NCBI GenBank assembly: GCA_024672315.1
Contig: GCA_024672315.1_4714.1
From: a phage
Reading direction: 5' to 3' (one strand)
DNA length: 64,000 bases
In this document: positions 4,425 to 55,636 of the stretch, in pieces
Layout of the letters: every line of letters starts with the position of its first letter
Numbering within the stretch: position 1 is the stretch's first letter
The notes under the pieces: model-generated
The model's input: only the letters and a program-made list of their open reading frames with translations
Databases searched by the model: none
Told to the model about the DNA's origin: nothing
Translations under genes and position numbers: made by a program

Positions 4425-5630
4425 ATGTCTAATTACTACGACCAAGCTATTCAAACCATTCAGGAGAATAATGCGTCGTTAACACCCGAAGCTGTGGAGG
4501 CAGCGGGCAATGCGGTGTTATTCACTGATTCGGATTGGGCAATAGCGCGGAAGAATATTCGTACCAGTGTCGGTCAAGGGACATACGAGGACAGTATCGC
4601 CAGACGGTATCGGAATGTGTCACCTATTCCGGGTAACAGTCCGATTCCGATTAACCGCGATCATGCCGGTATTACCTTCTTCACACGACCTAATTTACAT
4701 CTTACCGACGCGAACTTAAAACGAGATCGACGTTTGTGGTCGTTACGTACGGATAATCCTAACAGTATTCAGGCTGTTGTCCGTGACTACTTGGACCCTG
4801 TGGGTGCCAGAAAGCGGAACCATCGAGGACGTGCCATCGTCGATGAGCGCAATCCATTCATAAGTATACTGACGGACAACCTAACGGATATCAGCGGTTT
4901 CAATGACATGGAAATGCAGGTTTACCAGGGTAAACCGGGATTACGTCAAGAAACCGTTGTGATGGCTGACGGTTCGGTGGATATGTTTCAACCCTATAAC
5001 CTGAACGCGACATTCAAGAACATCATGGGTAACCCTATCATGTTCCTTCATTATATTTGGTTGATTTACATCGCAGGCGTGCATAATGGTGAACTGACGC
5101 CAAGCCCTCAGGCCATCATCGACAATGAAATGGATTATTGGACAAGATGTTATCGCATCATCCTGGATCCAACTGGGATGTATGTTCGTTATATCTTCGC
5201 ACCGACCGCGATGTTTCCCGTCGGGTTACCGATCGGTAATATGGCTAACTACAGCATCGATAAACCCTTCACGCAGGATAACGAACGTATCACTATCCCA
5301 TACCAAGCGGTTGGTAACAACGCATTCGATGAAATTCTGAAGGATGAATTCAATCGCCTTGTCCTGATGTTCTATTACGGTGAGAACGATACCCGTACGT
5401 TCCTTGAAGATGAGGAGTTGGTACCTATCTCACCCTACGAGCGTCGAATCATGTCGTATCGTGTCGATATGTATCCATTTATTCATCCGTTGACCTCAGA
5501 GCTTCTTTGGTTCGTACCCGCTGATGATTACAACGAATTCTATCTGGATCTTGAACCATCGGCGTTACCACCGGATACGTTCAGTCGCGATCTTGTCCGA
5601 ACCACCATTCCGCAAAATTACGAGGGATAA
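4425..5630 (+). CDS. hypothetical protein
   Basis: ORF track starts at TTG 4392; I prefer the first ATG (residue 12, MSNYYDQAIQ...) which has an AAGGAAAG RBS; only ~34 bp separates it from the divergent gene 3284..4390. Confidence 0.75.
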   Translation: MSNYYDQAIQTIQENNASLTPEAVEAAGNAVLFTDSDWAIARKNIRTSVGQGTYEDSIARRYRNVSPIPGNSPIPINRDHAGITFFTRPNLHLTDANLKRDRRLWSLRTDNPNSIQAVVRDYLDPVGARKRNHRGRAIVDERNPFISILTDNLTDISGFNDMEMQVYQGKPGLRQETVVMADGSVDMFQPYNLNATFKNIMGNPIMFLHYIWLIYIAGVHNGELTPSPQAIIDNEMDYWTRCYRIILDPTGMYVRYIFAPTAMFPVGLPIGNMANYSIDKPFTQDNERITIPYQAVGNNAFDEILKDEFNRLVLMFYYGENDTRTFLEDEELVPISPYERRIMSYRVDMYPFIHPLTSELLWFVPADDYNEFYLDLEPSALPPDTFSRDLVRTTIPQNYEG

Positions 5631-16351: not shown

Positions 16352-17851
16352 ATGAGCGAACAAGAACGAAAACCTAAGAAGAAACTGCTCGGTATTCAAT
16401 GTCGACACATCAGTTATAACGAAGCGAACGATGGCAGCAAGAACGACCTCATGATCGCAAAAGAGATCATGTTCTTTGATGATAACACACAAGCGACGAA
16501 TCTTCGCTTCTTCGAGAATTACAAACGTCCGTTTTGGGTGACGGTAGAGAGTAAACGCAAGAACAAATATAAAAAGGAAAGCGAGAAGCTCTCGCACGTG
16601 CGTCGCTACGATGTCCGTCAAAGTGAACTGGTTGAAAAGATCAGTTCGGTGCTTTATAAAAGACGTGCTGATGATAACACCCGTCTACAGCAGCTTGCAC
16701 GGAGTCCATACCTCTATGGCACGGACGTTAGCGCCAGCTGTTATTTAAAAACTCAGTACAACACAAAATGGCCGGAATACGTCGATAAATTACCCGCTTC
16801 CATTGCCTGTTTCGATATCGAAACCGACGTTGTCCATGGACACGGTAAGATCGTCTGTATGTCTATTACAATGGGATACAATGCGATACTTTGCTATACC
16901 AAGGACTTCGTTGGTCATATTCCGAATGCCATTGAGAAAACCCATGAGAAGATTCGATATTACCTGGCCGAACGTCTGAACACCAAAGAAGATCCTCACG
17001 CGTTCGAAAAATATCAGTACGATGTGCGAATCGTAGAAAGTCCGGCACAAGCGGTCATCCAATGCATGCAGAAGGTTCACGAATGGCAGCCGGATTATCT
17101 CCTTGGCTGGAATATCGCGTTCGATATTCCGCGCATGCTCCAGGCACTGAACGAAGAAGGGTATCGTCCCGAGGATGTTTTCTCCGATCCTCGTGTACCA
17201 CCTAAATATCGCATTGCTCGCTGGGTACCACCGAAGACCGACAAGGTATCTGCTTCAGGGCGTAAAACCAACCTTACCCTTGAGCAAACCTGGCCGATGT
17301 TTTATACGATGGCTACGTATCAGGTTATGGATGCGATGTGTGGTTATAAGTTCGTTCGTTTAGGAAGACCGGATGAGGGACGCTATTCACTCGATGCGGT
17401 ATTAGAGCGAAATAAATGCCATACGAAATTAAAAGCAATTCCTGGTACAGAAGGGTTCACGGAGCTCGCCTGGCACGAAGAGATGCAAACGAACCATCAA
17501 ATCGACTACGGCGTATATAACCTTTGGGATAACCAGGGTATCGAGGCGTTGGACCAGAAAACAAAAGACTATTCGATGACCATCCCTATTCGTTTAGCGG
17601 CGTCGGATTTGAAAGATTTCAGTTCTAACCCTAAACGTATCTGCGATAAACTTTTCTTCGTTTATCTTAACCGTGGGGAAGTCATGGGATGCACCGCCGA
17701 CGACATGACCCAGGAAGAAGATAAGTGGGTTATCTCACGAACCGGACATATCGTCACATTGCCGTGCGATCTCATGGCGGACAACGGCATCCATCTCTTC
17801 TGGGATATGCCTAATTTAAGGAGCTATATTCGATTATTTGTTGCGGATTAA
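16352..17851 (+). CDS. DEDDy-type 3'-5' exonuclease protein resembling the proofreading domain of family-B DNA polymerases (no polymerase domain)
   Basis: 499 aa; Exo I-like FDIETD, Exo II-like WNIAFDIP, Exo III-like YNLWD in the right order; none of the polymerase motifs (DxxSLYPS, KxxxNSxYG, YGDTDS) in this ORF or downstream. Confidence 0.75.
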   Translation: MSEQERKPKKKLLGIQCRHISYNEANDGSKNDLMIAKEIMFFDDNTQATNLRFFENYKRPFWVTVESKRKNKYKKESEKLSHVRRYDVRQSELVEKISSVLYKRRADDNTRLQQLARSPYLYGTDVSASCYLKTQYNTKWPEYVDKLPASIACFDIETDVVHGHGKIVCMSITMGYNAILCYTKDFVGHIPNAIEKTHEKIRYYLAERLNTKEDPHAFEKYQYDVRIVESPAQAVIQCMQKVHEWQPDYLLGWNIAFDIPRMLQALNEEGYRPEDVFSDPRVPPKYRIARWVPPKTDKVSASGRKTNLTLEQTWPMFYTMATYQVMDAMCGYKFVRLGRPDEGRYSLDAVLERNKCHTKLKAIPGTEGFTELAWHEEMQTNHQIDYGVYNLWDNQGIEALDQKTKDYSMTIPIRLAASDLKDFSSNPKRICDKLFFVYLNRGEVMGCTADDMTQEEDKWVISRTGHIVTLPCDLMADNGIHLFWDMPNLRSYIRLFVAD

Positions 17852-17940
17852 CCTTCGTTCTGTAAAAGTTTACTTCATGTAAGAATTGTGTGCGGCATAA
17901 GAGAGGCCGATACATCTAGATATTACATGAGGTTTACGAG

Positions 17941-19131
17941 ATGGAAAAATCTATACATACTCAAACTGGAACTATTGACTATCGCGATTCAGCATATTTG
18001 CCGTACACAAATCATCGTTATCGTATATTTGAAGATGGCGAGTTGTACGACTATAAAGAAGATAGGGTCGTCCCTTACGAAGTTGTAGACGGTGTCCCTT
18101 ATGTTGAAATCGATTGGTATAGAGGCATTGGAAAATACGATCTCGGTATGATCATTCTCACCGTTCTTGAACGGGTTGCTTTACCAGATCACCTTTACGA
18201 TGAAATTGAATCGTTGTTTGTGGACGGAGATCCGACTAACTTTTCGTATAGCAATCACATCTACCGTTTCCGTAATGGGCCGTTAGAAGTTGAGGGATTC
18301 GAAGGTTATTGTTATATTCCGTTTGCATCTCGTTACGCGATAAATAAAGAAGGACATTGTATTAGTCTTCTTTCGTTGGATCCTATCACGTGGACGAAAA
18401 CGGTTCAGCAAGGCACACGTCTTGGCGGATACGCTTATCGTAAAGTGGTTCCTGATAGCGGGTTTACACCGCAGTTGTATCGTCACCGAGCTATCATGTT
18501 AGCGTTTACGAGATATGATGCTAACGTTGTGAACTTAACCGTAAATCATAAAAACGGAATTAAAGGTGACGATTGGTTTGACAACCTCGAATGGGCGACA
18601 TATGCCGAGAACAATCAACATGCTCGTATGGCAGGGTTGTGTATAGGTACGTCAAAACCTGTTTTGGTTTATGATTACCGTGCACGAATCGAACGTCGTT
18701 TTAATAGTATCGCAGAAGCGGAACGTGCTTATCCGTACGTACCGAAAGGACGTTTCAAATGGTGGGTAAACAATCCCCCGAAACGTATCCCAGAATGCGA
18801 TTTATACATCAAGTTTGCCACGGACAATACGCCTTGGCCAGAGTGGAAACTTGGAGAAGATCGTCGTGTCGAGGACACCGATGGTCGCGGTATTCTCGCT
18901 ATTAATAAAGAGACGAACGAACGACATGTGTTTCCATCAGTAACTGCTGCCGCAAATGCGTTAGGAATCTCCTGGATTACCGTAAGACGTCATTGCGATC
19001 GTCGTGCAGTACCTACGAAACAGCCTTGGTGTTTTCGTTATGCTGATGATATTGCCGCTATGCCCGATTTCGATGTTAGTAAATTAGTTCCTAAGAAGAA
19101 GCGTGTATTTAATGTTCCATTAGAACGATAA
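17941..19131 (+). CDS. HNH homing endonuclease
   Basis: 396 aa; HNH signature VNHKNGIKGDDWFDNLEWATYAENNQHA; GAGG RBS; immediately downstream of the exonuclease gene. Confidence 0.8.
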   Translation: MEKSIHTQTGTIDYRDSAYLPYTNHRYRIFEDGELYDYKEDRVVPYEVVDGVPYVEIDWYRGIGKYDLGMIILTVLERVALPDHLYDEIESLFVDGDPTNFSYSNHIYRFRNGPLEVEGFEGYCYIPFASRYAINKEGHCISLLSLDPITWTKTVQQGTRLGGYAYRKVVPDSGFTPQLYRHRAIMLAFTRYDANVVNLTVNHKNGIKGDDWFDNLEWATYAENNQHARMAGLCIGTSKPVLVYDYRARIERRFNSIAEAERAYPYVPKGRFKWWVNNPPKRIPECDLYIKFATDNTPWPEWKLGEDRRVEDTDGRGILAINKETNERHVFPSVTAAANALGISWITVRRHCDRRAVPTKQPWCFRYADDIAAMPDFDVSKLVPKKKRVFNVPLER

Positions 19132-25366: not shown

Positions 25367-25500
25367 CTTGACATCCTTTTATATTGGATTGATTGCAATT
25401 GTCTTAAATAGATGATAAGATATTTTGCTCTTATCACTAAGGTAATGCTTACGCGTCGCGTTCATGATGCATGGCATCATGAAGGTAATATAGTCGTGAA
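25364..25500 (-). promoter_or_regulatory. conserved upstream regulatory block, copy A (5' region of 24941..25366)
   Basis: Coding-strand sequence ..TTTCACGACTATATTACCTT..(spacer)..GCAATCAATCCAATATAAAAGGATGTCAAG-ATG; near-identical blocks precede 51588..51905; copy A carries an extra 8-bp-stem palindrome (CATGATGC atg GCATCATG). Confidence 0.7.
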
Positions 25501-26030: not shown

Positions 26031-26076
26031 GCATAAAGCCCTTCCCTGCCCTTATATGGGGCGGGAAGAGTTTATG
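26031..26076. promoter_or_regulatory. GC-rich intergenic stem-loop (related family)
   Basis: gcataaag CCCTTCCCTGCCC ttatat GGGGCGGGAAGAG tttatg; stem with two bulges; TATG-like flank on both strands. Confidence 0.65.
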
Positions 26077-26197
26077 ACCGCAATGAGAATCTCTCACGAC
26101 AAGCTCACGACGATTATCGCATCACCCCGCGAGTGAGGGAGATCAGGATCACCTCCTACGTCGTAACGACAGCAATCCCGTTACGTCGCTTTAGACG

Positions 26198-32671: not shown

Positions 32672-33241
32672 TCAACGATTCTTCATCACTTTACCCAGGC
32701 TTTCGATATTATCCCAAAAGCGATTTTTACTTGGCGCATCGCCGACGATAACCGACATCAAATCACGACGTTCGCGACTGATGATGCCTTGTGATTTCCA
32801 GATCACCATCGTCCAGCAAGCAGCCAGAACGAACAGATGGTTAATGCTCGGTTTGGTTTGTGCGACGAACGCAAGCCATGCCCAGATACCGGTATATACC
32901 AACGTCACTAAAAAGAGAGAGATTGTTGCAACGACGACAACGAAGTTTTGGACAGCGGGCTGATTAGCCTTATCATGAATAGCGGTAAGATCAGGAAGAT
33001 TACCTTCAACTGAACTCGTTTCATCGATTTCCAATTCTTCGATTTCTTTTCGTGTGTCAGGAGCTAATCCAGCATCATCGAGATAGTTTTTTAACCGCTG
33101 AATACTTAATCGTTGACCGACAGGAATGTTGATGTTGTCGTAACTATTAAGCGCATCGACCAGTGAGCGCCCGTCAACGAGAACCAAGCTCGCAGTACCC
33201 ATCGTTTGCGGTTTTATTTTGTAAAGGTCTTTTACTTTCAT
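32672..33241 (-). CDS. hypothetical membrane protein
   Basis: 189 aa; two central hydrophobic helices (FVVVVATISLFLVTLVYTGIWAWLAFVA, LFVLAACWTMVIW); GGAGGTG RBS. Confidence 0.7.
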   Translation of the reverse strand: MKVKDLYKIKPQTMGTASLVLVDGRSLVDALNSYDNINIPVGQRLSIQRLKNYLDDAGLAPDTRKEIEELEIDETSSVEGNLPDLTAIHDKANQPAVQNFVVVVATISLFLVTLVYTGIWAWLAFVAQTKPSINHLFVLAACWTMVIWKSQGIISRERRDLMSVIVGDAPSKNRFWDNIESLGKVMKNR

Positions 33242-36716: not shown

Positions 36717-37223
36717 TTACTTACTGATAACCTCAACGGAGTTGGGATCAGCGATCAATGCACGGTCGGTAGAACAATTGAAGAAGACCATCCCAACACC
36801 ATCGCCGTTCGAGTTCAGGGTTGAACTTGCGTAAGACAATGTTGGTTTGTTCATGCGGTAGAAGCGTTCGCTGGTTGCGGTATTGAACCCCAGGTCAACG
36901 TAGTCTTTCACCGTGGTATACAACTGGGTGGACTCGAAAACGGTTACCGGAGAGTCAACGGTAAACTGACTGCCTTCATCCACAACCAGAACTTTATCGT
37001 TCCAGATTTCAGTGGTTGAGAACTTCGGTTTCCAATGTTCGAATTCCTGGGTTGCGCCCCAGCAAGAATACACAGCGAGATTGCTGTTCTTCTCAACAGG
37101 TTTCAAACCCACCAGTTGCGTCAGGTCTTTATCCAGGTTCGGTAAACCTTCCAGCGTAGCACACCCACCCAGAGAAAGCACCATCAACATACCAAGAACG
37201 ATCGCGCAAAGTTTCTTCATCAT
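36717..37223 (-). CDS. putative lipoprotein
   Basis: 168 aa; N-terminus MMKKLCAIVLGMLMVLSLGGCATLEG = basic n-region, hydrophobic h-region and lipobox-like LGGC; AAGGAA RBS; immediately downstream of the tail-fibre gene. Confidence 0.7.
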   Translation of the reverse strand: MMKKLCAIVLGMLMVLSLGGCATLEGLPNLDKDLTQLVGLKPVEKNSNLAVYSCWGATQEFEHWKPKFSTTEIWNDKVLVVDEGSQFTVDSPVTVFESTQLYTTVKDYVDLGFNTATSERFYRMNKPTLSYASSTLNSNGDGVGMVFFNCSTDRALIADPNSVEVISK

Positions 37224-41697: not shown

Positions 41698-41755
41698 GCA
41701 TATTGCCCCTCTATCTCGCTTTGTCGAGATAGAGGGGAGGATAATACGATTATGC
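41698..41755. promoter_or_regulatory. GC-rich intergenic stem-loop (related family)
   Basis: gcatattg CCCCTCTATCTCG ctttgt CGAGATAGAGGGG aggataatacgattatgc; perfect 13-bp stem; a second perfect hairpin (ATGGGGCGG taa CCGCCCCAT, ~41774..41794) sits directly after the stop of 41798..45394. Confidence 0.8.
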
Positions 41756-46372: not shown

Positions 46373-46948
46373 TTAGTAAGGAATCAGATCGTTAAGCTTT
46401 TCTTCTTCAATGACAAAGAAGTTGTTCTGGTCGTCTAAATCTGTTAACAGGACTTGTCCGACAGTAAAGCAAGTGCCGCCCTTCTTAGGCATCCATACCG
46501 GCTCATTCGTTACCTTATCGGGATACCATTTGAAACGATTGGTGTCTAAGAAGAACGCTGCTTTGTTCGCTTTATCGGTTGAACGATAGCTAACCAATGC
46601 AGGCCACTCAATCCAGGTGTTTGTGCACGGCACATGTAAAGGATACCATGCGCGCCAGCGTTTGCCTGGCCTGTTAGGATCAACCCAATACTCGGCAGTC
46701 AATACAGCATCTTTATAATGTTTCTGCATTAACATTTCGAGCACAAGCTCATTGCCTTTAGACGCATCTAAAGTCACTTCCGTCATATAAAGCGATTTAG
46801 GTAATTCAGACTGTTTTGCGGGTGTTACAACACCGGTAACCAACGGTCTGCTCGGTTTACGTTTCTGTTCTTTCCGACGTGTGTAAAAGAATAGTCCGAT
46901 AGATACAGCAACAAGGATAATAAACAACACTACCTTAATCCAATTCAT
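46373..46948 (-). CDS. hypothetical membrane-anchored protein
   Basis: 191 aa; N-terminal helix WIKVVLFIILVAVSIGLFFY followed by RRKEQKRK; stop followed by a hairpin plus T-run terminator. Confidence 0.7.
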   Translation of the reverse strand: MNWIKVVLFIILVAVSIGLFFYTRRKEQKRKPSRPLVTGVVTPAKQSELPKSLYMTEVTLDASKGNELVLEMLMQKHYKDAVLTAEYWVDPNRPGKRWRAWYPLHVPCTNTWIEWPALVSYRSTDKANKAAFFLDTNRFKWYPDKVTNEPVWMPKKGGTCFTVGQVLLTDLDDQNNFFVIEEEKLNDLIPY

Positions 46949-47694
46949 TCGTCAATATCTCCTTCTACAAACAGAGTCAATTTGATTTCAGGATCATAGA
47001 ACATGGTAATCACATCATCTTGCTCTACTGAACGCTGTGCTGTCCATATTAACTGTTCATCCCGAATATCAAATTTATGTCGTTCGTCACTCACCACAGC
47101 TTCCGCATCAACGTAATGGTAAACATCACCGAGAGGATTCTCAATCCAGCCGCGTACCATCAAACGTTCTTTTTGTTTACGTGTAAAGAAGCGATAAGGA
47201 TCTTCGCATGTGCGCCATACGTCCCCGTTCTCGTTAACCAGTTCATCATAAACTTTAGAGAGTTCGTCAGGTACCGGAATCAAAATGTTATCTTGATAGT
47301 TCGACCAGAAACGACGTACATCTTGGATCAACTCGTCGCCCGGGAGTTTAGTCGCTATGTTACTATAATCGATTTCAACAGTATCGATATCAAGACGGGT
47401 AAACGGAAGAGCGTCTAGGTTTCCCACCATGACCTCGATACCATCATGATGGACACGAATCCATCCGTCGAACCATCTGTACCCATCAGCTTGATATAAC
47501 GTTGTGTGATAAGTGACGACGTTAATATCCTCGAACGATTCTAATAAGGCTTTAGCGGCTAAAAGCGGCGAAAAGTTCTTCGATTGTCCTGGTTTACGTA
47601 TTTCTTCTTTGATGAACAATTTACCAAGCGTCGGGTGTTCAACAACAAAACCACAGGAAAGCATGATGCTTCCTTGATAACGTGCTTCTTGCAT
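46945..47694 (-). CDS. hypothetical protein
   Basis: ORF track starts at TTG 47712; ATG at residue 7 has GAGGAA RBS; stop overlaps downstream start (ATGA). Confidence 0.7.
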   Translation of the reverse strand: MQEARYQGSIMLSCGFVVEHPTLGKLFIKEEIRKPGQSKNFSPLLAAKALLESFEDINVVTYHTTLYQADGYRWFDGWIRVHHDGIEVMVGNLDALPFTRLDIDTVEIDYSNIATKLPGDELIQDVRRFWSNYQDNILIPVPDELSKVYDELVNENGDVWRTCEDPYRFFTRKQKERLMVRGWIENPLGDVYHYVDAEAVVSDERHKFDIRDEQLIWTAQRSVEQDDVITMFYDPEIKLTLFVEGDIDE

Positions 47695-47771
47695 TTTCCA
47701 TTCCTCAAACAAAAGATTGTCTTTTACGCGACATGATTACTAATACACAGGTTACTGAATTTCTGTAAAAG

Positions 47772-48272
47772 TTAATGTTTGTTCTTTACGAACTCTACCG
47801 CTTCCAGAATAGCAGCGTTTAATCGTTGACCGCGTTCCTCCATTGTCCCGCCATCGCGATGTTTGAAATTAACCGAGTGGATATCCCAAGCCCAGTAATG
47901 TGTCTCCGGCGTGTCGTCTTCTTTGGTGGGATCGCTCAATCTGTTAACCCCGATTCGCCAAATATAATCAGCGGGTTGTCGTCGTAAGCATTCACCTATA
48001 GCGTCTATATAAGACAACCCTTCGGTCGTCACAGCGACGATAACGTGCGGATGCTTACGAACAACCTTTGTGCTTGTTTTCCCATCAACGACCACTTTAC
48101 GGGTTACATTATCGTGTCCTTCGCATGACCACATCGGTGCAATACCAGGCGCATCTAACAACGCCTGGCACGCGGGTAATATTCCGGGTTCAATGACTCC
48201 TTCCTTGATAGCCATCCATGCACGTTCTTTGAATATCGCTAATTGTTCTTCGCTGACAACAAAAGAAAACAT
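47772..48272 (-). CDS. hypothetical protein
   Basis: ORF track starts at GTG 48302; ATG at residue 11 (MFSFVVSEEQ...) has AAGGAG RBS. Confidence 0.7.
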   Translation of the reverse strand: MFSFVVSEEQLAIFKERAWMAIKEGVIEPGILPACQALLDAPGIAPMWSCEGHDNVTRKVVVDGKTSTKVVRKHPHVIVAVTTEGLSYIDAIGECLRRQPADYIWRIGVNRLSDPTKEDDTPETHYWAWDIHSVNFKHRDGGTMEERGQRLNAAILEAVEFVKNKH

Positions 48273-48344
48273 AATTACTCCTTTCTGGTTCTTCCCCTCC
48301 ACAGCCTCAGGAAGAGAAGAACCGTTTGCTAAGTTGCTAAGTAA

Positions 48345-48602
48345 TTAAAATGCGTTGATTGGGTTGTTCAGCGCTTTATCGCGGATTTGAATCGCCGCCA
48401 ACATCGCTTTCTGGTACGAATCGTAAGCATCAACAGAAACCGTCATATCAACCAATTTCTCTAATACGGATTCAGCCGCTTTTACACGAACGCGGAACTT
48501 GGTGATGGCGTTATCTTTGTTACGGTAAACCGTGATATGGTGCAGCGGCTGAACGTTAGTTTTATTTGTTTTAACGGATTTAGTTGCTTTGATCGTTTTC
48601 AT
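48345..48602 (-). CDS. hypothetical protein
   Basis: 85-aa basic ORF with AAGGAA RBS. Confidence 0.65.
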   Translation of the reverse strand: MKTIKATKSVKTNKTNVQPLHHITVYRNKDNAITKFRVRVKAAESVLEKLVDMTVSVDAYDSYQKAMLAAIQIRDKALNNPINAF

Positions 48603-48649
48603 GATGATTTCCTTCTTTATTAGGATGATTACATTTAGTCAGTTTAACA

Positions 48650-48686
48650 GCATAAACCCTTCCTGCGTAATGCAGGAAGGGCATAC
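48650..48686. promoter_or_regulatory. GC-rich intergenic stem-loop (related family)
   Basis: gcataaa CCCTTCCTGC gtaat GCAGGAAGGG catac; perfect 10-bp stem; on the coding (minus) strand it is followed by TTTATGC, ~45 nt, AAGGAA RBS and the ATG of 48345..48602. Confidence 0.8.
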
Positions 48687-48695
48687 GGATTTGTT

Positions 48696-49193
48696 TTACG
48701 TGTGACGTCGTTTACCAAAGAAAATGTGACTGTCTACCACGGTGATATTGGTAGCATGTTTTCTGAAATGTTTAGGGCGAAGATGTTTCGCGTTAAAGAA
48801 TACGGCTCCTCGTGTTGGGTCGGCTTTATGGTAAGCCGCAATGTCAGTATAACGTAATGTTGCGACCTCTCGCGCTATTGCTCTTGCTCGCTCAAAAGCA
48901 GCATGATCGCGTATGATAATACGCCTTTGTTTTGTCCAGGGGAATTGACCTCTTTGCAGTACGACGTCTTTGACGTTCGTAGGGAATCGGTAGTCCATAG
49001 ATCGATTATGTATTAAAAACGCCACGGAGTATTGCCCTTTTACAGATTCGCCTCTGGCTTCCATATACACAGCGCATGCGACGATCTCTTTCCGGCAATC
49101 GATTCTAGGTCCTGCGTTCACTGATGCTTGACTGAACGGTGTGATAAGCAACATAACAAGCCCTAAAATCAACGTGTGTAAAATACCTTGCAT
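48696..49193 (-). CDS. secreted cell-wall hydrolase, SleB/CwlJ-like (candidate endolysin)
   Basis: 165 aa; signal-peptide-like N-terminus MQGILHTLILGLVMLLITPFSQASV; catalytic-domain pattern ..AVYMEARGESVKGQYSVAFLIHNRS..FP..V..QRGQFPW.. and ..GAVFFN.. typical of that family. Confidence 0.75.
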   Translation of the reverse strand: MQGILHTLILGLVMLLITPFSQASVNAGPRIDCRKEIVACAVYMEARGESVKGQYSVAFLIHNRSMDYRFPTNVKDVVLQRGQFPWTKQRRIIIRDHAAFERARAIAREVATLRYTDIAAYHKADPTRGAVFFNAKHLRPKHFRKHATNITVVDSHIFFGKRRHT

Positions 49194-49445
49194 CTTAATA
49201 ACCTCACGATAAGGTGCTGTCCACTGGCGTCTTGATAACGCATCCCATCATCGGGTTGTTCTATTCAGCGGGCAGCAGGTTAGCGTCAGATGTTTGCCCG
49301 ACATCCACGACAGAAATAAGCGGTACTGAAATTACGGTCTCCTCTGGTTTGGCAATAAACATAACGTTGGATAACAGAACCCATTTCCCGCATCCAACGC
49401 GGTAAAGGTGTACATCGTTTGAATTCATATAGTTTCTCAAAGATG

Positions 49446-49757
49446 TTAACCTCTACCGTCAAGCCATAGGTTGTATTTATCCCGAACATACGGATCGCGA
49501 TAAATACGTCGATAGACTTGATGTGGTATAAACTCGCAATGTACGAGTTCGTCGCTTAATTTATGACGTCGCTCCATACCGTTGTGTATACGACGTATCT
49601 CCCGGATATTAAAGGTTGTTTTATTCAAGAGAATAGACATAATGGCGGATCGATGATCCAGATTAAAGATCGCCATCACGCTTCGTATCTCACGTAAAAC
49701 AACTTCTCTATCGACAAGGATGCGATTAGTTAACTTAAGATTCTCCGTGATACCCAT
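49446..49757 (-). CDS. hypothetical protein
   Basis: ORF track starts at 49814; ATG at residue 20 (MGITENL...) has GAGGA RBS and reduces overlap with the upstream gene to ~23 nt. Confidence 0.55.
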   Translation of the reverse strand: MGITENLKLTNRILVDREVVLREIRSVMAIFNLDHRSAIMSILLNKTTFNIREIRRIHNGMERRHKLSDELVHCEFIPHQVYRRIYRDPYVRDKYNLWLDGRG

Positions 49758-50106
49758 AACCTTCATCCTCGACACGTCGACACATCGGTAAAAATAAACA
49801 CCAGCTTGTTGCACTGAGGATCGCTGTTGCGATGATATTTGCGATATCGCTCAGTCGAGCATCGACCTGCCACATAACAAGCATAAAAAGAACGTACGCG
49901 AACCCATACACAACAAACCGTTTGATGTTACGCGTCGACCATGTACAAATATACAAAAGGGGAAGCTGCCCTATAACACAAACGATGGTTCGGATAACGT
50001 AATAAACGCGTTCCGTCGTTGTTTCAAAATCGATATTCGCTGCAGAAATCCCAATCATTATAAAAGTGAAAATGAAATAGATTTTTGCGTATGTCTTTAA
50101 ACTCAT
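49735..50106 (-). CDS. hypothetical multi-pass membrane protein
   Basis: 123 aa; three to four hydrophobic helices. Confidence 0.6.
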   Translation of the reverse strand: MSLKTYAKIYFIFTFIMIGISAANIDFETTTERVYYVIRTIVCVIGQLPLLYICTWSTRNIKRFVVYGFAYVLFMLVMWQVDARLSDIANIIATAILSATSWCLFLPMCRRVEDEGYGYHGES

Positions 50107-50122
50107 GGTTTTTCCCGATCGT

Positions 50123-50317
50123 TTATTTGTGTTTTCCTACATTCCTCAACAAGGTAACGATAACGAATACCGCTATCATCAAGAAGACGAACCATAACCC
50201 TACGTTAATTCGGGCAGCAGGTTCATCGACCATGAAGAACATCATCCCACAAAACCCAATGACCATCCATGCTAGAACCATCCCCGTTAATCCCCGTAGT
50301 AGCATATGTCCCATCAT
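50123..50317 (-). CDS. small two-helix membrane protein (holin-like topology)
   Basis: ORF track starts at TTG 50356; ATG pair at residue 14 (MMGHMLL...) has AAGGAG RBS; two hydrophobic helices and basic C-terminus. Confidence 0.6.
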   Translation of the reverse strand: MMGHMLLRGLTGMVLAWMVIGFCGMMFFMVDEPAARINVGLWFVFLMIAVFVIVTLLRNVGKHK

Positions 50318-50327
50318 GAACTCCTTC

Positions 50328-50498
50328 TTACTTTTTCTGATAAAGCGATGATTCAAATTTTAGAAACATCACTAATGCGAATGCGAGTAATAACGCACGT
50401 ACCCACATACCTCCTTGATAACTGTTGTACAACATAAAGACCAGAGCGATGCCGCCCATATGCAGGCGGCACTTATCGAACAGTGTTGGTTTATACAT
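50328..50498 (-). CDS. hypothetical small membrane protein (not in ORF track; coordinates approximate)
   Basis: Hand-translated ~56 aa (MYKPTLFDKCRLHMGGIALVFMLYNSYQGGMWVRALLLAFALVMFLKFESSLYQKK); ATG overlaps the stop of 50491..50718 (ATGTATAA); no clear SD. Confidence 0.3.
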   Translation of the reverse strand: MYKPTLFDKCRLHMGGIALVFMLYNSYQGGMWVRALLLAFALVMFLKFESSLYQKK

Positions 50499-50718
50499 AA
50501 GTGATTAAACGTTGAATGATTTTTACTTTGCCTTTACCTGGACCTTTCTTGCGGCGATTCAACAGACGGATACGGGTTCGAGTTACAACGTCGCCGTCAT
50601 AATCAGCCTGGAACTGTGATAAAAAAGCAGGCTGTATCGGATCGACACCAGGATTGCTATAGAAAGGATTGAGACCTAAAAGAGGGTTAACTGGAATCAT
50701 CGCATTGTCCTTACTCAA
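50491..50718 (-). CDS. hypothetical protein
   Basis: 75-aa ORF abutting the stop of 50719..51069. Confidence 0.55.
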   Translation of the reverse strand: MSKDNAMIPVNPLLGLNPFYSNPGVDPIQPAFLSQFQADYDGDVVTRTRIRLLNRRKKGPGKGKVKIIQRLITYV

Positions 50719-51069
50719 TTATTTACCCAGATAGAGGTATTCACCACCCTGAACAACACCGGTTGCTGGATCAACAAGTATACGAACCCGTGCGTAGGTC
50801 TTGAAAGAGGGGTTGAAAACTTCGAAGTCTGCCACTTTCAATTTCACGCTGGGGTTGGTAGGGTTCTTAACTCCGGGAAGTTCTTTCGGGGTACCGAAAT
50901 CAACACCACATTCTTCAAGGTCTGCTGGCGTCATGCTCTCCATGGCCATGTAGATTGCTTTTGCTTTATCGTAAACCTCTGGGCTATCCAGCAATCCAGC
51001 CTGTGCTGAACCGACAACACTACCGAACAGAATAGCAACAGCAACAAACAATTTAGTTAACGTTTTCAT
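50719..51069 (-). CDS. hypothetical secreted protein
   Basis: 116 aa; signal-peptide-like MKTLTKLFVAVAILFGSVVGSAQA. Confidence 0.7.
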   Translation of the reverse strand: MKTLTKLFVAVAILFGSVVGSAQAGLLDSPEVYDKAKAIYMAMESMTPADLEECGVDFGTPKELPGVKNPTNPSVKLKVADFEVFNPSFKTYARVRILVDPATGVVQGGEYLYLGK

Positions 51070-51105
51070 GATATTTTCCTCGAAAGTAAAATGTTACAAT
51101 ACCTA

Positions 51106-51528
51106 TTAACGTACGGCCGCTACGCTGTTAGCGCATGCCTGAATATCATCGGTATTTACGATGATGGTTTCGTTAAACGCACGAATACGCGCACGACGTG
51201 CTTCTTTAAGGCTGGCGATTGCGCTAGTAGCTTGATCTGTATTCGCAAGGCTAATAACCGGGATCAAACGCATGTCAGGACTGCAGATATTCAATGCTTG
51301 GTATACACGTCCATTGATTCCTACGGTATCAGACATCGGATAGTGCGCACGGCATTGAAATTGACCCATGACAACAAGCGAACGATCGGAGATACCAATC
51401 TGATAACGACCGTCTTCGCTGTAGGCGTAACAGTTATTCCCACGAGCCATCCAGTTAGCCTGTGCTTGCGTGCTAACAAAAGCCAGAGTGGTGACGATAG
51501 CGAATACGATATTTTTGAACAGTTTCAT
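51106..51528 (-). CDS. hypothetical secreted protein
   Basis: ORF track starts at 51573; ATG at residue 16 (MKLFKNIVFAIVTTLAFVSTQAQA, signal-peptide-like) has GAGGA RBS. Confidence 0.7.
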   Translation of the reverse strand: MKLFKNIVFAIVTTLAFVSTQAQANWMARGNNCYAYSEDGRYQIGISDRSLVVMGQFQCRAHYPMSDTVGINGRVYQALNICSPDMRLIPVISLANTDQATSAIASLKEARRARIRAFNETIIVNTDDIQACANSVAAVR

Positions 51529-51587
51529 GATAAAGATCCTCGTTGAAATAAAATCGGTATAAAGGCCCCCCATTTAGGGGGACCTGA

Positions 51588-51905
51588 TTAGTTTGCGCGT
51601 AAGAAACGACCCAGAACCGTTACGATTGGAAACAGCCCTGTAACAGTATCATCGCCCGAAAACATCATCATTGTTCCGTTAACGGTGATGAAACGGATGT
51701 CTGTTGCGGACCCATCGATAGCGACAAAACGCATCGAGTTCGGTGGAAGGTCCTCAACCACTTCCACGAGATACTCGCGATTGTCAAAGGCTTCTTTAAC
51801 ACGACGCATGAAACGAATCAATGTTCCTTCCGCGTCGGCTTCCAAATGACCTAAGATATCGCGATTATTACGAATAGCAAATACAGCCATTTTAAACATA
51901 CACAT
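51588..51905 (-). CDS. hypothetical protein
   Basis: 105-aa ORF; preceded by the same conserved upstream block as 24941..25366. Confidence 0.65.
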   Translation of the reverse strand: MCMFKMAVFAIRNNRDILGHLEADAEGTLIRFMRRVKEAFDNREYLVEVVEDLPPNSMRFVAIDGSATDIRFITVNGTMMMFSGDDTVTGLFPIVTVLGRFLRAN

Positions 51906-52010
51906 CTTGACATCCTTTTATATCGGATTGATTGCTAATAATTCAAGGTGAAGCTGATTACTGCATTGCTTCACCTAAGTAATATAGCCGTGAAAATTAA
52001 TGTATTAACC
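51903..52010 (-). promoter_or_regulatory. conserved upstream regulatory block, copy B (5' region of 51588..51905)
   Basis: Coding-strand ..TTTCACGGCTATATTACTTA..(spacer)..GCAATCAATCCGATATAAAAGGATGTCAAG-ATG; identical to copy A over ~33 nt at the start codon and ~20 nt in the distal block. Confidence 0.7.
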
Positions 52011-52013
52011 TAT

Positions 52014-52970
52014 TCACGCTTTTGCTAAGTAGGGTTGGATCTCATTAATCCGTTTAACCACAACTTCAGGGAAAAGTTTGAGTATTTCATCAGGTGGTAT
52101 TGAACCTTCTGTCCAACGATAGCGTTCAACCATCTCGATGCGCGGACTCCCTCCGACGTCAGCGATACGAAAGATACAGGCGATGCCTAAATCGAAACAT
52201 ACGCTGTAAATATCTTCCGTACCTCCTTTATCAGCAAGTATTTTCGCAAAATGCTCGTTATCGGGAAGAATGGCTAAATTACGGATACACCAAACATTAT
52301 TCCCCATTTCTTCAAGTTTTGGGTAGGTTAAAGTGTGCCCGTATTGCGTTAACCATCGATGATTTTCGAGGTAGAAGTCCTTATCCCCTGGCCGATAACC
52401 CAGTATCACTCCCGTGTAGAAGAAATTGGGCATATCAAGCAGTTCTTGCACTGTCGGGCCGGTATGCTCCCAAAGACAGATTTGTTTACGGTCTATATCG
52501 TAATCTGTGACGTTACTCACCTCCCAACTTATCGTAAGTTCATCGGCAACGTGCCAACCTAAAGCGTGTTCGCCGCCAAGCAGATTAACAATGGTTGACA
52601 CTTCATACTTGTCAAATACGCCTAAATTACGCGGTGGTTGCATCGTACGTAATGGCTCCCACAACACACTGTAATCATAGAGCAAATGGCGACATAAACT
52701 TTTTGTTAGGGGCGTCTGTTCAGTGAACAGGGGAAGAATCACCGTATCCAATAACGGGCGTAACGGATGATCGTTCGGTGGTAACGGGGTAGCCAGCCGA
52801 CCTCCTTCTTTGGGGTAATCGAGACCAAACCCGTAACGCTCCGAAATGAGTGCAATCAGCACTTTTGCTACGCGGTTACGTAGTATGCGATGGATATCAT
52901 CACTGTAACTGAATTTCGGTTTATTACCGCAAACGAAGGTGAAGTATCTGGGCGTTAGCACAGCCATCAT
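52014..52970 (-). CDS. hypothetical protein
   Basis: 318-aa ORF; no motif recognised. Confidence 0.75.
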   Translation of the reverse strand: MMAVLTPRYFTFVCGNKPKFSYSDDIHRILRNRVAKVLIALISERYGFGLDYPKEGGRLATPLPPNDHPLRPLLDTVILPLFTEQTPLTKSLCRHLLYDYSVLWEPLRTMQPPRNLGVFDKYEVSTIVNLLGGEHALGWHVADELTISWEVSNVTDYDIDRKQICLWEHTGPTVQELLDMPNFFYTGVILGYRPGDKDFYLENHRWLTQYGHTLTYPKLEEMGNNVWCIRNLAILPDNEHFAKILADKGGTEDIYSVCFDLGIACIFRIADVGGSPRIEMVERYRWTEGSIPPDEILKLFPEVVVKRINEIQPYLAKA

Positions 52971-52977
52971 CTTTCCC

Positions 52978-53424
52978 TCAATCTAAATAGTACGTGATGG
53001 ATAGGTCTTTTCCATCGAATACAATATCCGTGCAGTCGTGAATGGTCGGTAATACCATTTTTGCTGCTATTGGGACGTATGCCTGCAGTTCCATGAAGTT
53101 ATTCATGCGGAACGCACGACGTACCATCAGCGGTGTTAGCGTAAACGTTACGCTGACGTTACCGCTTGGAAGCAGGTGCATTATCGCATGTCCGTGATCG
53201 CACCAGCAATGGTTTTCGATCCATCCGGTGTAAATCAGAATGTCTTTATCTTCGTCGTAATAAGCAATGCCGGTCTGCTTTAGATGACTAGTGAATCGAG
53301 AGGCTTGCTCGTAGCCTGCACGCAACATTCGAGCAACCAGTCGAGTATTGTTAGCGATTCGATTCTGTTCGTTGGTTTTTGTGGTTTTGAAAATTTCGAT
53401 ACGTTCTGCTTTTGTAATTTGCAT
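52978..53424 (-). CDS. hypothetical protein
   Basis: 148-aa ORF; Cys/His cluster HCWCDHGH. Confidence 0.7.
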   Translation of the reverse strand: MQITKAERIEIFKTTKTNEQNRIANNTRLVARMLRAGYEQASRFTSHLKQTGIAYYDEDKDILIYTGWIENHCWCDHGHAIMHLLPSGNVSVTFTLTPLMVRRAFRMNNFMELQAYVPIAAKMVLPTIHDCTDIVFDGKDLSITYYLD

Positions 53425-53502: not shown

Positions 53503-54102
53503 TTACTTAGGTTCCAGTATTGGTCCGAACAACCAGAATGTCAGACGCTGGTAAACCTGTTCGATGACTGCAGCTTCTGTTTGCTCTTCTAGTGCTTTCC
53601 CTTTCTTATGTTGTATTTCTGGCGGGATGTCGCCGTTGTAAACATACCCTGTTGAGAAGTCCCACGCCAACCGTTTACCGAAAGTGGGTAAGAACACCTC
53701 TTCGAATCGGAACGCTTTCGAATTCCAATGAAGCAGCTGATCGGATTCAACATGTAAGGCTTTATTACGTTTGCTTGGCGTGTTTCCGAAGTACTGAACG
53801 ATAGCTGATTTCATAACCCGATCGGCGAAGTCTTTGGCTTCGGCCTCATCGAGGGGAGGCAGACGATGTGATAGATTCAGCTTGCGTTGTTCAACATCAA
53901 TCTTACGCATCGCTTTAATCAAATCACCAGGAACGATTTTACCCTTATGGCCTTCCTGTCGGTGTACGAAACACCCCTGGAATAGCACGCAAAGTTCTTG
54001 AGGTGCGCTACTTTCCATTCGCCCATAAGCAACAATCACCGATCGACGACGATCAATAACTTCGCGGATAAACCGCGGCTCAGTAATACTCACCACTGTC
54101 AT
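53503..54102 (-). CDS. hypothetical protein
   Basis: 199-aa ORF. Confidence 0.7.
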   Translation of the reverse strand: MTVVSITEPRFIREVIDRRRSVIVAYGRMESSAPQELCVLFQGCFVHRQEGHKGKIVPGDLIKAMRKIDVEQRKLNLSHRLPPLDEAEAKDFADRVMKSAIVQYFGNTPSKRNKALHVESDQLLHWNSKAFRFEEVFLPTFGKRLAWDFSTGYVYNGDIPPEIQHKKGKALEEQTEAAVIEQVYQRLTFWLFGPILEPK

Positions 54103-54146
54103 TTAAAGCCCTCTTTATCTTTTTCCATTTCTCTTTACATAACCAC

Positions 54147-54851
54147 TTAAGACGTTGCCATCTTACCTTCCAGAGACTTCTTCGGTAAACCATGGATAAC
54201 TCCTTCCGGGGTTAAGAACACACAGTCTGGATTCTGCGTTCGTGAACGGTCGTCTGGACTGTTCAACGAAAACAGCAATGCAGAAATACCTTTTGTCCGA
54301 TTTAACGTTGCGACGATCACATCAAGCTGCCGTAGCGCATCCGATACTGTTCGATGTGGAACGATTCGCGACTGTTTGAAGCTGGCTAACCGCCAAGTCT
54401 CGAACAAACAACGCAGTTTAAACACGTCGGACGGAATAGCTGTAGATCCCTGTTCGATAACCTCAACCCGATCCGCTTCAGGATAACCTACAGCAACCGC
54501 ACTAAAGTGTTTTACCCCATTATGAAAATCATCGATAGACGCTTCAGCGTATTTACATACCGTGCCAGAAACGACCATCACTTTTGCTAAACCGCGATAA
54601 TTGATCGTTAACGGAATACGAAATACGCGTAAAGCATGTTCCGGATTTAATGAGACGTCATTCACTTTCGCAGATACCAGCGCACCTCGTTCATATCGAG
54701 CTTTGAACGGCAGCCCATTATAAACGGGATTGATCACAACGCCCCCTGGGGAGGCGTTAGCGTTAAGATGGGTGTTAAGCCAATCGGATACTTCCTGTCT
54801 GCTGGTTACGATTAACATAAAACGGTCCTCCATTTCTTTTCCTTCATTCAT
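54147..54851 (-). CDS. hypothetical protein
   Basis: ORF track starts at 54872; ATG at residue 8 has GGAAGA RBS and overlaps the methyltransferase stop by ~8 nt. Confidence 0.65.
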   Translation of the reverse strand: MNEGKEMEDRFMLIVTSRQEVSDWLNTHLNANASPGGVVINPVYNGLPFKARYERGALVSAKVNDVSLNPEHALRVFRIPLTINYRGLAKVMVVSGTVCKYAEASIDDFHNGVKHFSAVAVGYPEADRVEVIEQGSTAIPSDVFKLRCLFETWRLASFKQSRIVPHRTVSDALRQLDVIVATLNRTKGISALLFSLNSPDDRSRTQNPDCVFLTPEGVIHGLPKKSLEGKMATS

Positions 54852-55512: not shown

Positions 55513-55544
55513 GCATAAGCCCTCCCATGCCGGGAGGGTACAAT
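55513..55544. promoter_or_regulatory. GC-rich intergenic stem-loop (related family)
   Basis: gcataag CCCTCCC atgcc GGGAGGG tacaat; on the coding strand followed by TTATGCC, A-rich leader with AAGGAAAC RBS and the methyltransferase ATG. Confidence 0.75.
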
Positions 55545-55636
55545 TATTCATTTATGTGGGTAAAGGTGTGGATCGGCAGCCGTTGAGGCGATAACGCAAT
55601 AGAACGGCCGTTCATTAATAACTACTGTTTTGATGC

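Follow-up and report, generated by a model that had tools for sequence, protein, structure and literature searches.

Gene content and layout of the locus

We examined a gene cluster in a 64,000-nucleotide (nt) stretch of phage DNA (contig GCA_024672315.1_4714.1; hereafter the window) that ends with a gene for a secreted SleB-like peptidoglycan hydrolase. A first-pass annotation made from the sequence alone had described the region as lysis-cassette-like. Over positions 48000-52000 the window shares 94.9% identity with Escherichia phage vB_EcoM_Goslar, a nucleus-forming E. coli jumbo phage of 237 kb in the family Chimalliviridae, and the locus is the counterpart of Goslar gp097-gp105; the suffix “h” marks the homolog of a Goslar gene. 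Three diverged Goslar-like contigs (L007, L008, and L009; Goslar itself is L002), with a locus-average nucleotide identity of 74-75%, were used for comparison. RefSeq labels Goslar gp098 an “endolysin” and the remaining cluster genes “hypothetical protein.” The features, all on the minus strand, are listed below in the direction of transcription, with protein lengths in amino acids (aa) and transmembrane domains abbreviated TMDs.

51979..51994 (-): early (virion-RNA-polymerase type) promoter motif TTCACGGCTATATTAC upstream of gp105h, exact match
51947..51975 (-): conserved hairpin, GGTGAAGC..loop..GCTTCACC, just downstream of the promoter motif; stem invariant, loop varies
51588..51905 (-): gp105h, 105-aa open reading frame (ORF), acidic, soluble, first gene of the operon
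51106..51528 (-): gp104h, 140 aa, signal peptide ending TQAQA before NW, mature periplasmic protein with 4 invariant Cys (predicted)
50719..51069 (-): gp103h, 116 aa, signal peptide ending GSAQA before GL, cystatin/PepSY-like alpha+beta domain (predicted)
50491..50700 (-): gp102h, 69 aa, soluble, conserved strongly cationic C-terminus RIRLLNRRKKGPGKGKVKI
50328..50498 (-): orf56, unannotated membrane ORF, 56 aa, one TMD at residues 30-48
50123..50317 (-): gp101h, 64 aa, two TMDs, basic C-tail RNVGKHK, class-II-holin-like topology
49735..50106 (-): gp100h, 123 aa, four TMDs (from hydrophobic segments), fast-evolving
49446..49757 (-): gp099h, 103 aa, basic, soluble
49261..49478 (-): ultra-conserved block separating gp099h from the hydrolase gene; identity to L007-L009 is 96% or more
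48696..49193 (-): gp098h, 165 aa, Sec-exported SleB/Hydrolase_2 peptidoglycan hydrolase (predicted from Pfam, PHROG, and signal peptide features)
48657..48682 (-): intrinsic-terminator-like hairpin directly after the hydrolase gene, 11-bp GC-rich stem, free energy -25 kcal/mol, z = -7.45

The coding-strand order is gp105h, gp104h, gp103h, gp102h, orf56, gp101h, gp100h, gp099h, the spacer, and gp098h, the hydrolase gene being the 3'-most of those listed. ORF calls, hydrophobicity, and family searches recovered all six ORFs of the first-pass annotation at its coordinates, including its multi-pass membrane protein (four hydrophobic segments), its two-helix holin-like protein, whose topology was borne out by the two TMDs and the basic C-tail, and a small membrane ORF at ~50328..50498 that had not been called as a gene. 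It had placed the small genes downstream of the hydrolase; given coding on the minus strand, they lie upstream. It had also passed over two soluble basic proteins (49446..49757 and 50491..50700) and the 252-nt spacer at 49194..49445, which overlaps the ultra-conserved block of ~200 nt.

Six of eight consecutive genes encode exported or membrane products, compared to ~8% genome-wide (binomial P ~6e-6), and the gp098-gp105 region is the densest envelope-protein cluster in the Goslar genome. Lineages with only ~75% nucleotide identity retain the gene order and content, and purifying selection is strong on gp098h, gp101h, gp103h, and gp104h. The cluster features are real and form a conserved unit. 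Searches of the small cluster proteins against Pfam, PHROGs, and PADLOC gave no family match. In L007, L008, and L009 an extra 102-aa gene (5147-5455) lies between the gp105 and gp104 homologs; it is missing from the window and from Goslar.

The secreted hydrolase and its neighbors

The gp098h sequence matches Pfam PF07486 (Hydrolase_2) along the whole profile (positions 1-100 of 100) with a score of 59.5 bits, where 27 is the cut-off, and E=5.5e-16; it also matches PHROG 938, “endolysin.” Its YMEARGE stretch (residues 43-49) aligns with YGESRGE of the B. cereus and B. anthracis SleB proteins (4f55, 4fet), and the motif Y-x-E-[AS]-R-G-E is kept in all Goslar-like relatives. From the SleB structures, we take the Glu of this motif to be the catalytic residue. 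These matches bear out the SleB/CwlJ family proposed in the first-pass annotation, and by analogy with SleB the enzyme is probably a lytic transglycosylase.

The first-pass annotation had left open whether the hydrolase is secreted or held by a signal-anchor-release (SAR) domain. The N-terminus, MQGILHTLILGLVMLLITPFSQA followed by SV, is strongly hydrophobic and Leu-rich (KD19 1.97) and has a predicted cut after S-Q-A; these three residues (-3 to -1) and a Pro at -6 suit cleavage by signal peptidase I. Its hydrophobic core is rich in Leu, Ile, and Val, with 26% G/A/S/T, compared to presumably 50-65% in the SAR domains of P1 Lyz and R21. On core composition and the predicted signal peptidase site we reject a SAR endolysin; export stands, and the segment looks like a cleavable Sec signal peptide.

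Related hydrolases were found by tblastn in 1042 phage records, mostly large enterobacterial myoviruses, with 45% identity for the best relative outside Goslar. Homologs in phages A73, Av-05, and Arash carry a classical cleavable signal peptide and a Cys pair before the catalytic Glu. Conserved just before that residue in the clade of secreted phage enzymes and missing from Bacillus SleB, the pair is consistent with a periplasmic enzyme. The Av-05 homolog (gp150) lies in a non-structural region, adjoining rIIA/rIIB, and in A73 (A73_73/74) a 70-aa gene with two TMDs overlaps the 3' end of the hydrolase gene. Pectobacterium phage CB7 gp83 has a signal peptide and is toxic in E. coli; the overlapping gp82 (65 aa, two TMDs) is a candidate class II holin, and the phage has a conventional endolysin, along with a pair of spanins, encoded at a separate locus (PMC7344957). 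In Certrevirus, the two-TMD gene overlapping the SleB-like gene has been proposed as the holin for the SleB-like enzyme (PMC7344957), and Phapecoctavirus genomes encode a GH24 lysozyme plus a Hydrolase_2 protein (PMC10793346). Judged from these genomes, a secreted SleB-like enzyme with a two-TMD protein nearby and a normal endolysin elsewhere appears to be a recurring arrangement.

The Vequintavirinae-type hydrolases (CB7 gp83, Cronobacter CR3_087, A73_73/74, and Av-05 gp150) belong to the same Pfam family as gp098h and share with it the cleavable signal peptide, the Cys pair before YxEARGE, a position among non-structural or early-type genes, a second conventional endolysin, and a small two-TMD protein nearby. 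In contrast to them, gp098h is encoded in the genome of a nucleus-forming jumbo phage, is at most 45% identical, and has its two-TMD gene three genes upstream rather than overlapping its 3' end. It is also accompanied by two secreted and two further membrane proteins and by the ultra-conserved leader, and for the gp098 set there is direct evidence, from Goslar, of expression in the early program.

Among the small membrane proteins, gp101h has TMDs at ~12-30 and 39-57, a DEPAAR loop, and a predicted N-in/C-in topology. This is the layout of a class II holin or pinholin (~60-100 aa, two TMDs, N-in/C-in, charged C-terminus), and gp101h is possibly a pinholin by this topology; no holin family match was found in Pfam or PHROGs. 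Topology makes gp100h and orf56 holin candidates as well. Its homologs, mostly 63 aa, are confined to Goslar-like phages at 76-98% identity, and against L007 there are 17 synonymous and 8 nonsynonymous codon changes. A dual-start motif was not found either: the MMGHM start is not conserved, the homologs being mostly one residue shorter and that of L007 starting MGHL. The four-TMD protein gp100h evolves much faster, with 27 synonymous and 67 nonsynonymous codons against L007. The orf56 gene is unannotated in Goslar and called as a 56-aa gene in L007-L009; its divergence by codon position is 11/7/19, with the N-terminal 26 aa identical. We regard it as a real gene because of these calls in diverged contigs and the bias of its changes toward third positions.

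Both gp103h and gp104h are predicted to be released into the periplasm. The first-pass annotation had called them spanin-like proteins or periplasmic effectors. Neither has a lipobox Cys at its cleavage site (AQA before G and AQA before N, respectively) or a TMD, and a spanin is ruled out by the lack of a lipobox, TMD, or coiled-coil anchor; periplasmic effectors is a fair description. In tblastn searches of phages, both matched Goslar only. The gp104h start at 51528 is supported by a 1-nt indel relative to Goslar upstream of that position; its AlphaFold2 model (predicted local distance difference test score, 62) was too low in confidence for a fold search. In gp103h the N-terminal half evolves fast. 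A profile search placed it in a small family of ~110-aa proteins, with tandem copies of the domain within larger proteins; gp103h and its family members gave no Pfam PepSY match, gp103h had no sequence match in the PDB, and a BFVD search returned a single weak match, an uncharacterized Klebsiella jumbo-phage protein. A chromosomal gp103h homolog (54% identity) is encoded on an E. coli contig (L010, GCA_013055565.1, 1-9142), in an island flanked by an integrase, with DUF459, Ape1_N/GDSL esterase-like, and sulfatase-family genes as neighbors; these surroundings hint at a link to cell-envelope modification.

The first gene, gp105h, is under purifying selection (34 synonymous and 14 nonsynonymous codons against L007), and a signal peptide is absent from gp102h.

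The conserved spacer in front of the hydrolase gene varies in ~7 of 200 columns across six genomes, whose neighboring sequences are 55-80% identical; in the relatives to which the block is at least 96% identical, the flanking genes are only 55-65% identical. It holds a hairpin at 49365-49401 with TTATG right after it (49360-49364), and a 55-aa ORF (49428..49261) that gene callers accept in some contigs. The ORF has no Pfam match, and its frame shows no coding signature (0 synonymous, 4 nonsynonymous changes); yet conservation ends at its stop codon. An Rfam scan of 47000-53000 gave no match. A structured RNA was rejected: the minimum free energy has z = -1.0, covariation is lacking, and the alifold structure gains no support from the sites that vary. 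So was a repeat or mobile element, as the spacer is single-copy and absent from E. coli genomes and other phages. It could be a leader with a regulatory role, a region holding an internal promoter, or a micro-gene under dual constraint.

Promoter, terminator, and expression timing

The motif upstream of gp105h looks like the virion-RNA-polymerase promoter consensus of Goslar. In that genome, [CT]TATATTAC occurs in 8 copies (positions 2568, 113798, 142801, 160792, 166070, 172979, 201945, and 226696), all intergenic and on the coding (minus) strand, with a T-rich upstream tract in common; one precedes the chimallin gene gp246. The consensus is (A/T-rich)TTCAcGGCTATATTACyTnnGTGA, often followed by a hairpin. 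Two copies were found in the window, at 51979-51994 and 25485-25500 (both minus strand), and the cluster copy is invariant in five other Goslar-like sequences; it and the hairpin stem are unchanged even in lineages of only ~75% overall identity. We take TATATTAC to be the core of the phiKZ early promoter as well. Early promoters of chimalliviruses have been described as a conserved AT-rich element of ~10 nt (PMC7598289, PMC8244752), which the motif fits. The hairpin at 51947..51975 is probably at the 5' end of the transcript; a similar one follows the second copy, at 25485.

At the other end of the cluster, the stem of the terminator-like hairpin has changed in a compensatory way between lineages, and an invariant TTTATGC (48650-48656) comes after it; beyond the hairpin, genes of the early program continue (gp097h-gp094h). 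The combination of a GC-rich hairpin and (T)TATGC recurs between genes on the minus strand, at 48650-48682, ~26050-26090, ~41700-41740, and ~55520-55550, and probably represents a terminator with a late-type T-A-T-G start site right next to it. TTATGC also lies upstream of the major capsid protein and tail sheath genes, an arrangement that matches the T-A-T-G late start-site motif of phiKZ (PMC7598289). A scan for sigma-70 promoters gave fewer matches than shuffled sequence and is uninformative for this phage.

Expression data were taken from the RNA sequencing (RNA-seq) of the Goslar early-infection-vesicle study (Supplementary Table 2, bioRxiv 10.1101/2023.09.20.558163), in which control cells are compared to ChmA-knockdown cells, the latter running only the program of the injected polymerase (vesicle/virion RNA polymerase, vRNAP). 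The log2 fold changes (log2FC) are cleanly bimodal: late and structural genes (gp051-gp069, gp076-gp093, and gp204) lie between -3 and -8, the structural genes dropping 10- to 100-fold, and gp094-gp105 lie between +0.5 and +1.5, like chimallin at +0.7 to 1.1 (10.1101/2023.09.20.558163). Values for individual genes are +0.95 to +1.04 for gp098, +0.9 to 1.1 for gp100, +1.0 to 1.5 for gp101, +0.9 to about 1.3 for gp103, +0.9 to 1.3 for gp104, and ~+1.0 for gp105 (10.1101/2023.09.20.558163). From gp094 to gp159, small genes without assigned function make up a single long early region in Goslar (10.1101/2023.09.20.558163).

Comparing motif positions with these data, we found that all eight motif-headed Goslar genes belong to the early program, with sharp late-to-early switches at the motif (gp213/gp214, gp076/gp075, and gp176/gp175). 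The log2FC steps from ~+0.1 (gp106) to ~+1.0 (gp105) exactly at the motif. The Goslar orthologs of the whole cluster, hydrolase included, are therefore part of the early program; the late expression of a canonical lysis cassette was not found for the gp094-gp105 orthologs. With 95% identity and an identical promoter and terminator, early expression would be expected in the present phage as well.

An early envelope module or a lysis system

Our best reading, to which we give a probability of roughly 55%, is that the cluster is an early envelope module, exporting a SleB-type lytic transglycosylase and loading the membrane and periplasm with small modulators; its purpose would be wall remodeling, lysis priming, or superinfection exclusion. 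Transcription by the injected virion RNA polymerase would start at the TATATTAC promoter (51979-51994) and run from gp105h through gp099h, with the hydrolase gene reached by read-through of the conserved spacer or by a restart within it. Within minutes, host Sec would insert the four-, two-, and one-TMD proteins into the inner membrane and export the two small proteins and the SleB-family hydrolase, to be released in the periplasm by signal peptidase I. The hydrolase would then act on the sacculus or park at it during infection, leaving a wall that is loosened or remodeled, and pre-armed for lysis. The membrane and periplasmic partners would control the hydrolase, block further phages as T4 Imm and Sp do, or both. 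Final lysis would fall mostly to the late soluble GH108 endolysin gp024 and a separate holin, with gp098 contributing at most. The fast evolution of gp100h and of the N-terminal half of gp103h is as expected at a phage-phage or phage-host interface. Reports of cell bulging or wall phenotypes were looked for in the Goslar cell-biology paper and not found.

The parallel with T4 lies in timing and location: Imm (two TMDs) and Sp (secreted, inhibiting the incoming tail lysozyme) are, like the cluster proteins, early, small, and placed in the inner membrane and periplasm, and both early expression and a predicted inner-membrane or periplasmic location were found here. A plausible lysozyme target for an Sp-like activity is the GH19-type tail lysozyme domain of Goslar gp204, a virion-borne late gene product. 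The parallel has its limits, in that T4 exports no wall hydrolase with these genes. T4 Sp is all-helical, in contrast to the alpha+beta, cystatin-like model of gp103h.

This cluster is probably not a conventional lysis cassette, because expression of its orthologs is early, spanins are absent, and a canonical late endolysin is present elsewhere. On these grounds, and with no detectable phiKZ homologs, the lysis-cassette claim of the first-pass annotation fits poorly. That annotation had named a separate canonical endolysin and holin elsewhere, with the cluster dispensable for lysis, as evidence that would overturn it; half of this was found, in the late soluble endolysin. Goslar gp024 (17700-18335) is a 211-aa soluble protein with GH108 and PG_binding_3 domains and no signal peptide, matches the PHROG 315 endolysin at E=3.6e-40, and is the most conventional endolysin candidate of Goslar-like phages. 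It behaves as a late gene, with a log2FC of -4.7 to -5.4 in the ChmA knockdown (10.1101/2023.09.20.558163). No membrane-protein gene adjoins it. By mass spectrometry of virion preparations, gp024 was present and gp098 was not among the proteins listed; chimallin was present too, and the list decides nothing.

The lysis cassette of phiKZ comprises an i-spanin (gp141), an o-spanin (gp141.1), a class III holin (gp142), a regulator (gp143), and an endolysin (gp144) (PMC12894885). Like it, the present cluster combines a wall hydrolase with membrane proteins in a member of Chimalliviridae; unlike it, the cluster has no lipoprotein/TMD spanin pair, is expressed early, and encodes a secreted enzyme, that of phiKZ being soluble and holin-dependent. 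We searched six-frame ORFs of at least 40 aa from Goslar and the window with phiKZ gp141, gp142, gp143, and gp144 using phmmer, and found no match at E<=10; at this single-sequence sensitivity, no homology to the phiKZ cassette was detected.

A different possibility is a non-canonical lysis system, in which a periplasmic hydrolase is restrained by the energized membrane or a periplasmic partner and unleashed when the pinholin gp101h depolarizes the membrane. In such a system the four-TMD and 56-aa proteins would be antiholins or timing factors, and the cationic gp102h a disruptin-like breaker of the outer membrane. We consider this the main rival, if an unlikely one. In its favor are the annotation of the gp098h family as endolysin, a cleavable signal peptide like that of other exported endolysins, and the size, topology, basic C-tail, and very strong conservation of gp101h. 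The same pairing of a secreted SleB enzyme with a two-TMD protein in A73 and Certrevirus, with an enzyme toxic in E. coli (PMC7344957), points the same way, as do the conserved cationic C-terminus of gp102h and the lack of any other recognizable holin or spanin in Goslar. Systems built on SAR endolysins and pinholins (phage 21 R21/S21, P1 Lyz) are comparable in that the enzyme is exported independently of a holin and a small two-TMD protein could act as the depolarizer; they differ in enzyme family, in SAR domains that are Gly/Ala-rich and uncleaved compared to the Leu-rich segment and cleavage site of gp098h, and in the early expression of the present cluster. Against a lysis role, the whole set belongs to the early vRNAP-driven program, not the late one, and a canonical late soluble endolysin is at hand. 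Further, gp101h has no Pfam or PHROG holin match and its multiple-Met start is not conserved, gp102h lacks a signal peptide and could thus reach the periplasm only after holin action, and small two-TMD proteins with other roles, such as T4 Imm, are common among early phage genes.

Improbable in our judgment is that there is no functional unit at all, just unrelated early accessory genes and a SleB-like gene acquired horizontally as a moron of marginal function. The small proteins are indeed confined to Goslar-like phages and belong to no known family, and the nearest relatives of the hydrolase are in unrelated large enterobacterial myoviruses (<=45%), suggesting horizontal acquisition. The early region is a single run of small unassigned genes (gp094-gp159), and diverged relatives have the extra 102-aa gene between gp105 and gp104. 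Chance assembly is hard to reconcile with the enrichment of exported and membrane products (6/8, P ~6e-6), with order and content kept at ~75% nucleotide identity, with strong purifying selection on four of the products, and with an extremely conserved spacer that joins the small genes to the hydrolase gene.

Several points count against the early envelope module. The functions of all cluster proteins are predictions, and the RNA-seq was done on Goslar, not on the present phage. Early transcription is compatible with a lytic role: the energized membrane might keep an enzyme in the periplasm inactive up to the moment of holin triggering, and at 30 min the Goslar data still show the mRNA. The counts are at gene level, so that a separate late start of the hydrolase at the spacer TTATG (49360-49364) is possible. 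The topology of gp101h is that of a textbook class II holin, and the similar two-TMD gene of Certrevirus has been proposed as a holin (PMC7344957). No holin or spanin was recognized anywhere in Goslar, no homolog of the phiKZ cassette is detectable, and the cluster is the densest envelope set of that genome. We found no sequence similarity to T4 Imm or Sp and no Pfam superinfection-immunity match at E<=1.

A more specific version, which we regard as speculative and with a slim chance of being right, is that the exported SleB-type transglycosylase and a cystatin/PepSY-like partner form a phage counterpart of SleB-YpeB, reshaping or pre-weakening the sacculus for the phage nucleus and virion bouquets and metered by the ~200-nt leader as a new cis-element or dual-coding micro-gene. 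The catalytic domain of Bacillus SleB is homologous to gp098h, and the gp103h domain is also found in tandem repeats in larger proteins, as is PepSY in YpeB. Unlike in the Bacillus system, gp103h has no sequence-level PepSY match, and its fold is generic, with cystatins scoring higher; gp098h has no peptidoglycan-binding domain; and the wall in question, in a different organism, is vegetative Gram-negative peptidoglycan without muramic delta-lactam. The resemblance of gp103h to YpeB is a lead only.

The phiKZ cassette, defined in 2026, has no detectable Goslar counterpart. By timing, the genes considered here for lysis by enterobacterial nucleus-forming jumbo phages fall into a late soluble GH108 enzyme on one side and, on the other, an exported SleB-type enzyme that is early, with its companions; this gives a short list of testable candidates. 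If the cluster is an early envelope module, the phage would modify the host envelope long before lysis, possibly with bearing on superinfection exclusion, cell shape, and lysis timing. More than 1000 phage records contain a related hydrolase, and many of those listed are labeled “endolysin,” a label that may mislead.

Other genes outside the cluster are of interest. A lipobox scan of Goslar found a single convincing lipoprotein, gp088, outside the cluster and without a C-terminal TMD. Its homolog gp088h (window 36717-37223, minus strand; 168 aa) has the lipobox MKKLCAIVLGMLMVLSLGGC followed by A and a match to PHROG 9559, a family of unassigned function, is late-expressed, and lies between tail-fiber and tail-fiber-assembly genes; it could be an o-spanin-like protein or an Llp-like receptor-blocking lipoprotein. 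Also on the minus strand, gp085h (window 32672-33241; 189 aa) has an acidic N-terminal soluble domain of ~100 aa, 1-2 TMDs, and a charged tail. Goslar gp085 is late (log2FC -3.8 to -5.6) and adjoins the DUF7941-containing gp086; the gross layout of gp085h, with no sequence similarity, recalls the phiKZ class III holin gp142, which has the DUF7941 protein gp143 as its neighbor. Where the late tail genes (gp093 and below) give way to the early block lies gp094h (window 46373-46948, minus strand), an early protein of 191 aa. Its single N-terminal TMD precedes a strongly basic stretch, and the predicted topology is N-out/C-in, with a large domain in the cytoplasm. Identity to L007-L009 also reaches at least 96% in a second block, at window positions 54056-54176, which covers the start of the gp109 homolog and the short intergenic region upstream of it.

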